Of a DNA stretch of 64,000 nt, positions 3,705 to 62,422 are shown piece by piece. This DNA is from a virus: UHGV virus genome UHGV-0351052; one strand, 5' to 3'. Made by a program: the position numbers and the translations under genes. Each line of letters begins with the position of its first letter. The first letter of the stretch is position 1. The notes under the pieces are model-generated. The model had not been told where the DNA came from. It saw nothing but the letters and a program-made list of their open reading frames with translations, and searched no databases.

Positions 3705-4493
<789 letters not shown>

Positions 4494-4592
4494 TCATTTA
4501 TTGCAGCAAAAAACGAATTATACAATTCTTCATCATATGTATTTGATAATACTAACACGTTTTGCGATAAATATTAATTTAAAGGAGGATAC

Positions 4593-4793
4593 ATGGTACA
4601 AAAATTAATGGCACTTGTTAATGCCATAAAAGGTAATAAGAAACGTATAGCTTTTACTATTTCTGCTATGATAGGAATTTTACTTTGGAATTTTGTTTTA
4701 TCGCCAGTTGCTATTGCTCATGGCGTTAGTATTCCAGTAGTTACTCTTGATACATTCGTAGATTTAGCATTTGCTTTAGTTGGGTTAATTTAA
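4593..4793 (+). CDS. hypothetical small membrane protein (66 aa) on plus strand
   Basis: Intergenic plus-strand ORF with strong AGGAGG Shine-Dalgarno 7 nt upstream of ATG; hydrophobic; late-promoter-like gATAAATA about 20 nt upstream. Confidence 0.5.
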   Translation: MVQKLMALVNAIKGNKKRIAFTISAMIGILLWNFVLSPVAIAHGVSIPVVTLDTFVDLAFALVGLI

Positions 4794-5818
4794 ATCTTAG
4801 CATATTTAGATAGCCGCATTTTAGCCATCAACCCCTGGGCAATATTATTTTTCATATATTCCATAATTTGTTCAGGGGTTGCACCTTCCTTTCTAATCAT
4901 ATCATTAACATCTTTTGATTTCCAGGGAGATTTATCCCAAAACATAACCCTTTCTCCTGCATCAACTAATTTAGTCATTCGTTTAATAGTGTCAGGGTGA
5001 CGAGGTTCATTATCTAAGACCCACACTCGTCTATCTTTAAATGGAACAACTTCTAGGTCTAATTGACCACCCGTAATAGCTATACCATTTTCAATAAAAA
5101 GTGAATCTATAGGTCCTTCTAGAACATATACATCACCATCTTTAACTCGTTCGACTCCATAGATTTTTGTTGCCTCAGGATAAGCTTTGATGGTGATATA
5201 TTTTTGAGGAGCATCTTTCTTTAATGCACGTCCTTGAAAAGACTCAGCTTTTCCATTAGCATTATAAATTGGAATAACAAGACGAGGCTCAGAAATTTCC
5301 TTTTTGTATGTTCCCGGTGCTATGCTATTAACCAATTTAGGCCATTCGGTTGTAAACCAAAGATATTTCCATTTATCCTTTGGAATACAACGAGCTTTTA
5401 CGTATTTTATAATTGGATGGTCTTCCGCCAGTTTATCTAATCTAACACATGACGGAAGAGATTTAATTATTTTCTTCTCAGGTTGTTTAGGAAGTTCTTT
5501 AGGTTTTTCTACTGGACGACTTTTACCTTTTTCTTTTCTTATTTCAAAGATATACTCACGATATAAATCAGGTTCAAACTCCTTTAGATATATTCCGATT
5601 GGTGCATGATAGTTACAGTTATAACAATGAATATTTCCTTCATTATTATCACCATAATACCATCCACGGGCTTTATTTTGGTCGGTTTTTGAATCTCCAC
5701 AAACAGGACATCTAAACCGTAATTTAAAAGTTGAACTATTATTTACTTGTGTGAATTTAGGTAAATGAGCTAATGCACGGTATGCGAACTCATTATCAAT
5801 CCAAGGTATTGATGACAT
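4790..5818 (-). CDS. 61: DNA primase gp61
   Basis: 342 aa; zinc-ribbon CPVCGDS near N-terminus; matches T4 gp61 from memory. Confidence 0.9.
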   Translation of the reverse strand: MSSIPWIDNEFAYRALAHLPKFTQVNNSSTFKLRFRCPVCGDSKTDQNKARGWYYGDNNEGNIHCYNCNYHAPIGIYLKEFEPDLYREYIFEIRKEKGKSRPVEKPKELPKQPEKKIIKSLPSCVRLDKLAEDHPIIKYVKARCIPKDKWKYLWFTTEWPKLVNSIAPGTYKKEISEPRLVIPIYNANGKAESFQGRALKKDAPQKYITIKAYPEATKIYGVERVKDGDVYVLEGPIDSLFIENGIAITGGQLDLEVVPFKDRRVWVLDNEPRHPDTIKRMTKLVDAGERVMFWDKSPWKSKDVNDMIRKEGATPEQIMEYMKNNIAQGLMAKMRLSKYAKI

Positions 5819-13150: not shown

Positions 13151-13187
13151 TAGTTGTATAGTACCATAGAAGAACAGGGATGTAAAC
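13151..13187 (-). promoter_or_regulatory. T4-type early promoter
   Basis: conserved motif tagttgtatagtacca ... gtaaac (13182-13187) shared with 15+ other sites. Confidence 0.55.
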
Positions 13188-17236: not shown

Positions 17237-18196
17237 TCACTTCCACTGCATTTCACATGCCAATTGAATGAAAAGATATGCTAAATGTAATTCAGTATTA
17301 GCCGCAATTCCATGATACTGGTTATTTTCACCAACAATTTCATACATACGAATAATACTTTGCGGAGTTACGCGTGTATAGATTTCTTCGGCAAGTTTAC
17401 CAACGAACCACGAATAATCAGCTGCATATTTTGGTGCTAAAGCTCTGAGTTGTTTAACATCTTTATTTTTGAGAGACTCAAGAACATCATCAATAGCACC
17501 ACGATCGTTAGTAACCAGTGATAAAATACCAGCATCCAAAACACCTTTAGATGAATAACTATCGAGCTCGCCAATAGTTTTACGAAAATCAGGAAAATTC
17601 TTTTTAACCAAAGCTGCTACAACTTTCATATCAGCTATAGCAATTCCTTCACGCTTGCAGATTTCAGTCAATCGACGAATCATCTGCTTCATCATTTCAA
17701 TTTTATCTTCATCGGTCGGTTGACCGAATGTAATAACTCGGCAGCGTGACTGAAGCGGTTTAATAATACCATCAATATTGTTAGCAGTAATAATAATACT
17801 ACAGTTTGAACTATAAGCTTCCATAAAGGAACGAAGATGTCGCTGAGACTCTGCTAACCCTGAGCGGTCAAATTCATCAATAACGATTACTTTTTGACGA
17901 CCATCAAATGAAGCTGCACTCGCAAAATTAGTTAAAGGACCACGAACGAAATCAATTTTACAATCTGATCCATTCACAAACATCATATCAGCATTTACAT
18001 CATGACACAATGCTTTTGCTACAGTTGTTTTACCTGTTCCTGGAGAAGGAGAATGAAGAATAATATGTGGAATCTTACCTTTACTTGTAATAGATTTAAA
18101 GGTTTCTTTATCAAAGGCGGGAAGAATACATTCATCGATAGTAGATGGACGATATTTCTGTTCAAGAATGTGTTCTTTTTCATTTACGGTAATCAT
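17237..18196 (-). CDS. 44: clamp loader ATPase gp44
   Basis: Start at MITVNEK gives 319 aa; Walker A GTGKTT. Confidence 0.9.
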
Positions 18197-27277: not shown

Positions 27278-27407
27278 AAATCATCTGTTTATGTAACTTG
27301 AGTATAAGATAATAAACTTCAAAACCGTTTACGTAAGTAACACGAACAACATTACCATTAATAAAATAATATTGTCCCTTTTTAATTTCTTTATCAACCA
27401 CAACCAT
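27225..27407 (-). CDS. hypothetical protein (60 aa)
   Basis: ORF track. Confidence 0.4.
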   Translation of the reverse strand: MVVVDKEIKKGQYYFINGNVVRVTYVNGFEVYYLILKLHKQMICDRAVFSSVAKEIKLHG

Positions 27408-27435
27408 ATTAATTCCTCAAAGGCAATTCATGTGT

Positions 27436-27467
27436 TAATAATACCACAGTTTGAACTTGTTGTAAAC
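27436..27467 (-). promoter_or_regulatory. T4-type early promoter
   Basis: gtaaac at 27462-27467, -10 region taataatacc, shared upstream motif tttgtgaaa. Confidence 0.55.
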
Positions 27468-27542
27468 AACTTTGTGAAATTATTTTAGGGAATGATAAGA
27501 AGGGAACGATAGCTTAGAATGGTAATATACAGAATGTGAGAA

Positions 27543-27560
27543 AGAAAGGCCCAGAGGGCC
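27543..27560 (-). terminator. hairpin terminator after nrdH
   Basis: ggccc-aga-gggcc with U-rich tract on minus strand. Confidence 0.5.
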
Positions 27561-48181: not shown

Positions 48182-48395
48182 ATTTGACTTCCTCACCAGT
48201 ACATAAATCGTATTCAACTAAACGAATAGGTTCATGAATGCCATATCCCTGAACAGAAATTTCTGTCGTGGGATAAATTCCATCAATATCGCCCATATTC
48301 CACGCTTCATTAAATTGCTGTTCGCCTGAATTACTAAACCATTCGGCGAAAGCATTTAGCACATCTTCAGAACCTTCAATAATTATCTTTGCCAT
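48174..48395 (-). CDS. hypothetical protein (73 aa)
   Basis: ORF track. Confidence 0.5.
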   Translation of the reverse strand: MAKIIIEGSEDVLNAFAEWFSNSGEQQFNEAWNMGDIDGIYPTTEISVQGYGIHEPIRLVEYDLCTGEEVKYD

Positions 48396-48757
48396 TACAA
48401 ACTCTCGGTAAAGGTACGAGCGATAACGTCGCGCTGCTGTTCCGGAGTCAGAGAGTTAAAGCGAACTGCATAACCGGATACACGGATGGTCAGCTGCGGA
48501 TATTTTTCCGGATGCTTAACTGCATCTTCCAGAGTTTCACGACGCAGAACGTTAACGTTCAGGTGTTGACCACCTTCAATTTTAACTGTAGGCTGTTGCT
48601 CAATTTCAATTTCACGGGCATGCAAACCGTAGAAAATTTCTGGGTCTACAAAAGAGTCCTCTTTAAAGGTTTTAGAGACAATAATTCGTGCTTGAATACC
48701 ATCTTCAAAATAAATAGTACCTTTATGTGTGCCTTCAAGAATTTGATATGCTTTCAT
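48395..48757 (-). CDS. autonomous glycyl radical cofactor GrcA/YfiD-like protein
   Basis: C-terminus [60 protein letters not shown] with glycyl radical motif RVSGY; coding DNA for this half is GC-rich and host-like. Confidence 0.8.
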
Positions 48758-48764
48758 ATAAACC

Positions 48765-49145
48765 TCAATTAGAAAATAAATTTATCCAAGATTGTTCTTT
48801 AATTAAAAATGGCTCAGAATCATATGCCATTAAACTCTGTGTGATTAGTCCTTTAAAAGGCCCATCAATAAATTCCATGGTAAAATATGGAATTTTATTC
48901 ATTAGCCGTGCATTAGGAGCAGTGCACAAAACTCTGCATCCTTTGAATACACCTTTTTGTAATTTGTATTGCTTGGGATAAAATTCGCTCAAAATGTTAT
49001 TTTTTGCCAAAATTTCAAAATGATTCACCAATTTATTTTTAATAGTTTTTGGCGAAAAATAAAGATATTCGAAAAGCTGAGTGTCTGTCATCATTGCATT
49101 CCGATTACGAAAAACTGTGGACGAGTAATACCACCAATGCAACAT
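48765..49145 (-). CDS. hypothetical protein (126 aa), possibly 3-prime part of a split gene
   Basis: ORF track; overlaps next ORF by 55 nt in another frame. Confidence 0.4.
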
Positions 49146-50471: not shown

Positions 50472-51002
<531 letters not shown>

Positions 51003-61795: not shown

Positions 61796-61818
61796 TATAA
61801 ATAGATAATATATTTATA
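61796..61818. promoter_or_regulatory. divergent late promoters (TATAAATA on each strand) for gene 4 (minus) and gene 53 (plus)
   Basis: plus-strand tataaata 61796-61803; minus-strand TATAAATA as plus tatttata 61811-61818. Confidence 0.6.
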
Positions 61819-61831
61819 AACAGGAGGGCCC

Positions 61832-62422
61832 ATGCTCTTTACATTTTTTGATCCGATTGAATATGCGGCCAAAACGGTGAATAAAAACGCGCCGACTATT
61901 CCTATGACAGATATTTTTAGAAACTATAAAGACTATTTTAAACGCGCTCTTGCGGGATACCGCTTACGTACTTATTATATCAAAGGTTCACCACGCCCGG
62001 AAGAATTAGCAAATACTATATATGGAAATCCACAGCTGTATTGGGTTTTATTGATGTGTAATGATAATTATGACCCGTATTATGGATGGATTACTTCACA
62101 AGAAGCAGCTTATCAAGCATCTATACAAAAATACAAAAACGTAGGTGGAGACCAGATAGTATATCATGTAAATGAGAACGGTGAAAAATTTTATAATTTA
62201 GTATCATACGATGATAATCCATATGTTTGGTATGACAAAGGCGATAAAGCTAGAAAATATCCTCAATATGAAGGAGCGCTTGCTGCGGTCGATACGTATG
62301 AAGCGGCTGTTCTTGAAAATGAAAAACTTCGTCAAATAAAAATAATAGCAAAATCAGACATCAATTCATTTATGAACGACCTTATACGTATAATGGAGAA
62401 ATCTTATGGAAATGATAAGTAA
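61832..62422 (+). CDS. 53: baseplate wedge protein gp53
   Basis: 196 aa; T4 gp53 length; strand switch to late plus-strand cluster. Confidence 0.85.
   Translation: MLFTFFDPIEYAAKTVNKNAPTIPMTDIFRNYKDYFKRALAGYRLRTYYIKGSPRPEELANTIYGNPQLYWVLLMCNDNYDPYYGWITSQEAAYQASIQKYKNVGGDQIVYHVNENGEKFYNLVSYDDNPYVWYDKGDKARKYPQYEGALAAVDTYEAAVLENEKLRQIKIIAKSDINSFMNDLIRIMEKSYGNDK

Follow-up and report, generated by a model that had tools for sequence, protein, structure and literature searches.

A Conserved Small Membrane-Protein Gene Convergent on Gene 61 of T4-like Phages and Its Late-Promoter-like Motif

Introduction

Does a short reading frame that runs against the early genes of a T4-like phage encode a protein, and if so, when is it expressed and what kind of protein is it? 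The question is raised by UHGV virus genome UHGV-0351052, a stretch of 64,000 nucleotides that is analysed here at its full length (the window) and is a Tequatrovirus genome. Between its dam gene and gene 61, the gene of the DNA primase, a plus-strand open reading frame (ORF) of 66 amino acids lies at 4593-4793. An earlier description made from the letters alone (the sequence-only reading) had pointed out this ORF, an AGGAGG Shine-Dalgarno (SD) sequence in front of it and a late-promoter-like motif about 20 nt upstream, and all of them are found in the window (Table 1).

The answer reached here is that 4593-4793 (+) is a genuine protein-coding gene, the ortholog of dam.1 of phage T4T and a member of the PHROG family phrog_2024; that it is likely transcribed late; and that its product is probably a bitopic inner-membrane microprotein. 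Taken jointly, the genuine gene, its late expression and its membrane protein form a combination that we consider likely. The existence of the gene is already known: T4T has it annotated as dam.1, hundreds of T4-like genomes list it as a hypothetical protein, and a PHROG family is devoted to it. What is added here is the purifying selection on it, its conservation across the Tevenvirinae of enterobacteria, the positionally conserved late-promoter motif and its absence from the T4 reference record NC_000866.4.

Identity and Conservation of the Small Gene

First of all, the identity of the gene follows from its close relatives. The 701 bases around the small ORF match 504 phage records at 90-99% identity, most of which have a hypothetical protein annotated in the interval from dam to the primase gene, and the T4-type phages in which a plus-strand coding sequence (CDS) is annotated at the same spot show 96-98% DNA identity to the window. 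The protein itself is 91-100% identical to its annotated orthologs, which are named dam.1 in T4T (ADJ39749.1; plus strand, 17724-17924), RB32ORF030w in RB51 and gp16.1 in Salmonella phage S16. The copies of dam.1 in T4 are the same gene, with about 95% protein identity and with identical strand, position and overlap with the stop of gene 61; the window copy is distinguished from the T4 copy by a few conservative substitutions, that is to say, by no substantive difference. In the PHROG database, the protein matches phrog_2024, whose function is unknown, at E=8.1e-31 (residues 2-66 against profile positions 1-65 of 65), and neither Pfam nor NCBIfam yields a match to it at a threshold as loose as E<=10. 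In the phage literature, no paper naming dam.1 was found, nor was a ribosome profiling (Ribo-seq) or small-protein study of T4.

The coding constraint on the gene is visible in every comparison that could be computed. Among nine orthologs from four genera and two metagenomic lineages, the ratio of nonsynonymous to synonymous substitution rates (dN/dS) is 0.05-0.50 in all pairs with a computable dS. Between genera, the proportion of synonymous differences (pS) is 0.6-0.87, which amounts to saturation, yet the proteins remain 49-68% identical and are separated by a single one-codon indel. A tblastn search found the protein in 698 phage records, in 686 of which at least 80% of its length is covered, and the copies of type A, one of two paralog types, keep a length of 65-66 aa. 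Moreover, an SD sequence of the GGAGG/AGGAG type precedes all 13 orthologous copies examined. The sequence-only reading had taken the ORF for a real small membrane-protein gene, and the match to phrog_2024, together with a dN/dS well below 1, bears this out.

As for the breadth of the family, the check for an ortholog in related phages, which had been proposed together with that reading, gave a positive answer: the gene is present at the gene 61 junction, on the same strand, in Tequatrovirus, Mosigvirus, Gaprivervirus, Kanagawavirus, Gelderlandvirus and Jiaodavirus. The most distant members come from Gelderlandvirus, Jiaodavirus, Kanagawavirus and their relatives, and all of them fall within phrog_2024. 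Beside gene 61, no member of the family is annotated in those genomes of Krischvirus, Aeromonas Tulanevirus and Acinetobacter Lazarusvirus that were examined. A profile built from both paralog types retrieved 109 clusters, all on contigs of T4-like size or on short fragments. An exhaustive hidden Markov model (HMM) search of 1.84 billion representatives brought up no more than 15 with E<=0.001. These have lengths of 33-70 aa, and no named family is linked to any of them; phrog_2024 is thus a narrow family, specific to phages. In the window, the HMM of the family found only the small ORF itself among 656 ORFs of at least 25 aa, so that no paralog was detected there. On this comparative evidence, the small gene is under purifying selection and is conserved across the Tevenvirinae that infect enterobacteria.

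Signals for Late Expression

The late promoters of T4 consist of an 8-bp sequence, TATAAATA, at -10 without a -35 element, and late transcripts are of either polarity, whereas the transcripts of the early and middle classes are all of one polarity (PMC2988020). The octamer in front of the small ORF, GATAAATA, agrees with this consensus at seven of the eight positions, and the sole deviation is its first base (-13), where G stands for T. According to the same source, 32 of the 50 listed T4 late promoters are perfect and nine carry A at -13; half of the non-consensus ones (9/18) deviate at this very position (PMC2988020). The transcription start would lie about 6 nt 3' of the octamer, near 4579-4580.

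In 10 of the 12 promoter-bearing copies, which come from six genera, NATAAATA stands 23-30 nt before the ATG, and the flanking sequences cannot be aligned between genera. The first base of these ten copies varies (G twice, A four times, C three times and T once), and a perfect TATAAATA occurs in one Kanagawavirus copy. The insertion that lies upstream in phage HY03 ends precisely at the 5' edge of the GATAAATA octamer, where homology to the window is restored, as is to be expected if the octamer is the upstream boundary of a functional unit. In addition, the near-consensus core is scarce elsewhere: VATAAATA occurs seven times on both strands of the window against 29.6 +/- 4.9 in shuffles, a strong depletion, and the canonical TATAAATA is not depleted, with eight occurrences against 10.4 expected in shuffles. 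The depletion of VATAAATA is consistent with selection against stray late-promoter cores, and suggests that near-consensus ones are avoided genome-wide. Late-type expression signals had been proposed from the one sequence, and the proposal gains from the comparison, in which the octamer keeps its place while its flanks diverge.

With the late genes of T4, the small gene has in common the 8-bp AT-rich motif at -10, the absence of any conserved element further upstream, a short leader that carries a strong SD sequence and a polarity that may be opposite to early transcription. It differs from them in the first base of the motif, for which the window copy has G and relatives have A, C or T, and in that its promoter is a predicted one; moreover, T4 late genes lie in a late operon, whereas the small gene stands alone inside an early/middle cluster.

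A different view would be that the ORF is real and the octamer is not its promoter, so that the gene is driven by another signal, at another time, or is hardly expressed. Several points speak for this and weigh against late transcription from the octamer: the first base is off the consensus; the S16 and L007 copies have one-mismatch variants and lack the exact ATAAATA core; and the listed T4 late-promoter sites are not all proven active in vivo, with the relative in vivo strengths of variant promoters left undetermined (PMC2988020). Nevertheless, this view leaves the constant place of the motif across six genera with divergent flanks, and the avoidance of the ATAAATA core in the rest of the genome, without a reason, and it finds no substitute signal: on the plus strand between 3600 and 6000, 13 sigma-70-like promoters were counted against 12.2 expected, and none of them is placed to drive the small ORF. 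We therefore hold this view to be doubtful. For T4, a dRNA-seq study gives 150 transcription start sites, 22 of which are antisense (bioRxiv 10.1101/2024.04.04.588121). Late transcription is the best-supported reading of the promoter evidence, and the small gene is, as far as can be inferred, likely to be transcribed late.

Architecture and Topology of the Protein

M1, W32, N33 and G44 never vary in an alignment of 29 diverse members of the family, and P38, P48 and V50 hardly do. The N-terminus is variable, always with a basic cluster just before the hydrophobic helix (KGNKKR in the window copy), and an acidic residue is usual at position 53. The family can thus be recognised by a basic cluster, a hydrophobic helix with W-N-[FYL], the pattern P-x-A-x(3)-G-x(2)-L-P-x-V and an acidic residue; the window protein has all of these, and they are kept in the most distant representatives.

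The sequence-only reading had assigned two hydrophobic helices to the protein, of which one stands. The first hydrophobic segment (about residues 19-42) scores as membrane-spanning, with about -2.4 to +3.8 kcal/mol across the family in an approximate sum on the Hessa scale, while the C-terminal segment comes to +2 to +10 kcal/mol in the same approximate sum and would therefore not insert into the membrane on its own. An AlphaFold2 model made with the alignment has a mean predicted local distance difference test score (pLDDT) of 83 and places helices at 2-11, 15-42 and 52-65, the last one being a short helix of only 14 residues at the C-terminus. The protein therefore probably has one convincing transmembrane (TM) helix, not two, and would be a bitopic inner-membrane microprotein. 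By the positive-inside rule, its N-terminus would be cytoplasmic and its acidic C-terminal 24 residues periplasmic. Two points weigh against this topology: it derives from a crude sum of hydrophobicity and from AlphaFold modelling of the monomer, and the first TM segment (TM1) of the type-B paralogs, with an Asp in the helix, is marginally hydrophobic at about +3.5 kcal/mol.

In this topology, the conserved residues are not spread evenly. W32, N33, P38, G44, P48, V50 and the acidic residue around position 53 are gathered at that end of the helix which faces the outer leaflet and the periplasm, and such a cluster suggests that a specific membrane or periplasmic partner is bound, rather than that the membrane is damaged in bulk. 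Foldseek searches with the AlphaFold model gave nothing at E<=0.001 in the PDB and only the protein's own ortholog at E<=0.001 in BFVD; these searches are of little informative value, as a short helical hairpin is too simple a fold.

Comparison with Lysis Proteins and Signal Peptides

It might be thought that the small protein is a holin, pinholin or antiholin-type lysis protein. With the holins and pinholins (class II holins and the S21 pinholin, for instance) it shares small size, membrane association and probable late expression, and in some family members the first helix is, as in these proteins, Ala/Gly-rich and only weakly hydrophobic. UniRef and one GenBank record label orthologs as "Holin" or "holin family protein", weak profile matches exist to phrog_11161 (E=0.012 and 0.065) and PF11351 (E=0.1), and one divergent member lies within 2 kb of a lysozyme-domain gene, on a contig that is not T4-like. 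However, all of the holin matches are below threshold and come from distant members only, PF11351 reaching 13.6 bits against a cut-off of 24.8. The small protein lacks the charged hydrophilic C-terminal tail of holins, since its C-terminus (...DLAFALVGLI) has no basic residues and closes with hydrophobic ones, and its basic cluster is N-terminal; only a single segment qualifies as a TM helix, so that a second full one is missing; and no endolysin, holin or spanin gene adjoins it in the Tevenvirinae loci examined. A lysis protein of this type is accordingly improbable.

The antiholin RI offers no better relation. RI, like Imm and Sp of T4, is also a small T-even protein at the inner membrane or in the periplasm, the three being proteins of superinfection exclusion and lysis inhibition, and sp lies in the same cluster, about 2 kb from the small gene. 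No sequence relationship to any of the three was found, and their genes are on the early-transcribed strand, unlike the small gene. The small protein has no profile similarity to RI (hhalign probability 0.07%), and the pentapeptide FVLSP that it shares with T4T RI was set aside as a chance match. The lysis and lysis-inhibition loci of T4 (t, e, rI, rIII and pseT.2/pseT.3) have been mapped genetically, and none is known to lie at this locus. Pfam and NCBIfam scans of the protein and its distant relatives gave no family at E<=10 or E<=1, their sole hits being sub-threshold noise (Mlo and GTA_holin_3TM); the basis of the "holin" labels on a few orthologs is not reproducible in this analysis. As judged from the protein sequences, membership in the holins, in RI or in any other family is not supported.

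The hydrophobic segment could also be read as a cleavable signal peptide or a releasable signal-anchor, from which a 24-residue acidic C-terminal peptide would be released to the periplasm. The sequence P38-V-A40-I-A42 | H-G fits this, since small residues at -3 and -1 come after a helix breaker there, as they do at signal-peptidase sites; the pattern P-x-A-x-(A/T/S) recurs in the family, and TM1 is Ala/Gly-rich and marginally hydrophobic in many members. On the other hand, the n-region would have 18 residues and the h-region about 20. Typical Gram-negative signal peptides have n- and h-regions much shorter than this. Moreover, W32 and N33, which besides G44 are the sole invariant side chains, lie inside the segment, and this would be unusual if it were disposable. 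We regard cleavage as rather improbable, and the protein anchored by one TM helix remains the preferred reading.

Genomic Context and Transcript Ends

The small gene and its surroundings are listed in Table 1. Its stop codon and that of gene 61 interlock within a 4-nt overlap (TTAA).

Table 1. Positions of the small gene, its expression signals and neighbouring features in the window.
Feature	Position	Strand	Remarks
Small ORF CDS	4593-4793	+	ATG at 4593, stop TAA 4791-4793; 66 aa; protein MVQKLMALVNAIKGNKKRIAFTISAMIGILLWNFVLSPVAIAHGVSIPVVTLDTFVDLAFALVGLI
Shine-Dalgarno AGGAGG	4583-4588	+	4 nt 5' of the small-ORF ATG
Late-promoter-like octamer GATAAATA	4566-4573	+	19 nt 5' of the small-ORF ATG
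Gene 61	4790-5818	-	DNA primase, 342 aa; convergent partner of the small ORF
dam	3705-4484	-	DNA adenine methyltransferase, 259 aa; left-hand neighbour, outside the conserved unit
Hairpin, possible plus-strand 3' end	4829-4881	+	14-bp outer arms CAACCCCTGGGCAA / TTGTTCAGGGGTTG; inside the 3' coding end of gene 61, 36-88 nt past the small-ORF stop
Weak intrinsic-terminator-like site	4598-4627	-	ATGGCATTAACAAGTGCCAT then TAATTTTTGT; -8.4 kcal/mol

In all 11 Tevenvirinae loci compared (T4T, F1, HY03, WFL6982, VR26, EAWsc9, Q7622, SA21RB, S16, PKO111 and KLB31), the small gene lies opposite to the early-gene strand and is convergent with the primase gene at the latter's 3' end. Seven copies overlap gene 61 by 4 nt and two by 14 and 24 nt, and three are separated from it by short spacers. 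The left-hand neighbour is variable. In the window it is dam, and most other genera have gene 56 (dCTPase) there; Kanagawavirus has a MazG-like gene, and PKO111 has a large ORF. In loci L004, L007, L010-L013 and L015-L017, dam is absent at this position. As most other genera lack dam there, what is conserved is the linkage to gene 61 and not that to dam. The expectation of an ortholog at the dam-61 junction thus held on the gene 61 side, and dam proved to be no part of the conserved linkage. Even next to dam, the unit can be separated from it: in HY03 (L003, 1685-2245), an insertion of about 540 bp with an extra minus-strand hypothetical gene of 186 aa lies between dam and the small ORF, and the same type of insertion is found in about ten other records (H8-H16, H22, H25-H31).

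In VR26 (L011), two plus-strand paralogs of type A and type B, about 23% identical, stand in tandem at 1495-1692 and 1701-1901, upstream of the primase 3' end, and the second one has its own SD sequence and lacks the promoter motif. EAWsc9 (L012), which is related to VR26, has type A only, followed by a 118-nt spacer with a strong hairpin. Type-B copies are also found in Q7622 (Kanagawavirus), in cluster P0076 from Klebsiella phage Potts1 and in similar Klebsiella-phage clusters.

When the most divergent members were traced to their surroundings, no locus was obtained for P0118, and for P0120 one incomplete contig that is not T4-like. Such a member of phrog_2024 is seen at 2501-2710 of IMGVR_UViG_2703718848_000021 (L019), a contig that is not T4-like, where it does not lie beside a primase gene. 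It is about 1.5 kb from a stand-alone lysozyme-domain gene and from an ORF with a TM segment and a coiled coil, and the contig ends at the gene. The proximity of the lysozyme-domain gene is at most a weak hint of a link to lysis.

Past the stop of the small ORF, inside gene 61, the RNA of the plus strand can form the hairpin of Table 1 (z=-4.64 against shuffles). Two of its pairs are G.U on the plus strand and become A.C mismatches on the strand of the gene 61 mRNA. A comparable hairpin is found in T4, ime09-type phages, Mosigvirus, Gaprivervirus, Kanagawavirus and the metagenomic L004, and in each case the plus strand is the more stable one. On the gene 61 mRNA, the hairpin lies upstream of the gene's own stop and is therefore not the terminator of gene 61.

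The structure was also compared with what the primase sequence would allow, through 300 synonymous recodings of the 40 codons at the end of gene 61, drawn from local codon usage. In the window, the hairpin is more stable than the recodings (z=-4.0, 0/300), and in the seven loci in which the small gene abuts gene 61, z is -1.9 to -4.1, with 0-8 of the 300 recodings as stable. L007 and PKO111 have instead a GC-rich hairpin in the intergenic spacer and no excess structure in gene 61 (z +0.08 and +1.28). Three control phages without the small gene gave mixed values (z +0.24, -1.49 and -2.08). A one-sided rank test gave p=0.0025, for loci that are not phylogenetically independent. The contrast between the loci is real but not clean.

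By its place on the plus strand, the hairpin is well suited to end or stabilise the transcript of the small gene, and it may serve as the 3' end or terminator of that transcript. Against this stand the lack of a good U-tract, the coincidence of its arms with the conserved gp61 motifs ATPEQ and QGL, and the last of the control values, which belongs to Krischvirus W115 and indicates some excess structure in a phage without the small ORF. Covariation was also considered as support and rejected, as the register is shifted in Mosigvirus and the count of compensatory changes is unconvincing.

On the minus strand, the weak terminator-like site lies in codons 2-12 of the small ORF, about 165 nt 3' of the gene 61 stop. 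The annotation of phage SA21RB gives a rho-independent terminator at the same site. A minus-strand terminator as a family-wide feature was rejected, because the site is weak and was found in Tequatrovirus copies only.

The arrangement could mean that the main function of the unit lies at the RNA level, with late convergent transcription silencing or processing the primase mRNA or blocking early read-through, and with the peptide secondary. The unit is indeed always locked to the 3' end of gene 61, there is no room for an intergenic terminator in most genera, and structure is conserved in the overlap zone. However, the strong purifying selection on the amino acids and the invariant residues show that the peptide itself is selected; L007, L012 and L016 keep the ORF even though a hairpin-bearing spacer would limit their antisense overlap; and a divergent member is found away from any primase gene. 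An RNA-level role as an added layer is possible. As the main one it is quite improbable, because the peptide is under selection.

Other Plus-Strand ORFs and Promoter Motifs in the Window

The small gene had been described as the only plus-strand gene in the first 61 kb, and a greedy tiling of ORFs of at least 40 aa agrees, as it finds no other with an ATG start and an SD sequence. In the corresponding region, T4T annotates one other tiny plus-strand ORF, 55.7. At 27373-27547 of the window, its counterpart has GTG for ATG, a frameshift and an early stop. This counterpart overlaps an early-promoter consensus of the minus strand, GTTTAC-N14-GTGGTATTAT, and about 30 nt of it are found again at 13181, 39205, 54822, 58062 and 58392. 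ORF 55.7 may be a promoter shadow rather than a gene. A 127-aa ORF with a TTG start at 48389-48772 (+) was discarded as the shadow of a 120-aa minus-strand gene, which is annotated elsewhere as the autonomous glycyl radical cofactor GrcA.

As for further copies of the late-promoter consensus, two TATAAATA octamers lie 13 nt apart at 50980-51000 (-). A divergent pair of TATAAATA, one on each strand and 15 nt apart, is located at 61796-61818, just upstream of the first plus-strand late gene at 61832.

Absence from the T4 Reference Annotation

In the T4 reference record NC_000866.4 (L018), a gap of 309 nt without annotation (17626-17934) lies between dam, which ends at 17625, and gene 61, which starts at 17935, and the intact 66-aa ORF is present there at 17738-17938, with the counterpart of the octamer at 17709-17716 and that of the hairpin at 17974-18026. 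T4T, the RB-series and most newer T4-like records annotate it. That this stretch is unannotated in the reference and that the ORF is short would suit a chance antisense ORF in an untranslated spacer between gene 61 and dam, which is hardly credible and is refuted by the comparative data, namely a dN/dS well below 1 at saturated synonymous sites, the conserved length, the strong SD sequence in every copy examined and a PHROG family of its own with 15 representative clusters in the exhaustive profile search.

The omission has consequences for the large datasets on T4. A time-resolved transcriptome and proteome study counted reads over the features of NC_000866.4 (PMC9697503), and the guides of a genome-wide CRISPRi-ART screen were designed from the CDSs of NC_000866 (PMC11879866). 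As the annotation omits the small gene, neither of them could report it. In the main text of the T4 HIDEN-SEQ transposon study (bioRxiv 10.1101/2025.11.20.689424), the locus is not mentioned.

Proposed Role and Significance

The course of events that we propose is as follows. Late in infection, RNA polymerase with gp55 would transcribe the small gene from the GATAAATA octamer, giving a leader of about 13 nt with the strong SD sequence. The transcript would enter gene 61 antisense, and the hairpin in the primase coding region would probably form or stabilise its 3' end. The product would consist of a short basic N-terminal helix in the cytoplasm, a TM helix at about 15-42 and the 24-residue acidic tail with a short helix at the periplasmic face, and the conserved residues at the outer end would bind a specific membrane or periplasmic partner. 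This partner may belong, speculatively, to the late envelope programme, that is, to lysis timing, lysis inhibition or the handling of superinfecting phage. An envelope-related role is the leading guess, and a low-confidence one.

A bolder version would join all of these parts: an overlooked late inner-membrane factor, common to the Tevenvirinae, that acts on a specific envelope partner by way of its conserved motif near the periplasm, with a hairpin in the primase CDS that sets the 3' end of its mRNA and with convergent transcription that curtails primase expression. It is unlikely that this holds in full. If it were true, the holin/antiholin or spanin machinery or the route of superinfecting DNA would be examples of what the factor might act on.

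For RNA biology, the hairpin would illustrate on a small scale how selection at synonymous sites can act on RNA structure where convergent genes leave no space between them. For the work on T4, adding the small gene to the reference annotation would make the existing datasets re-readable at no cost. For the T-even phages as a group, a conserved, probably late and periplasm-facing microprotein is a reasonable candidate for an envelope role that is still unassigned.

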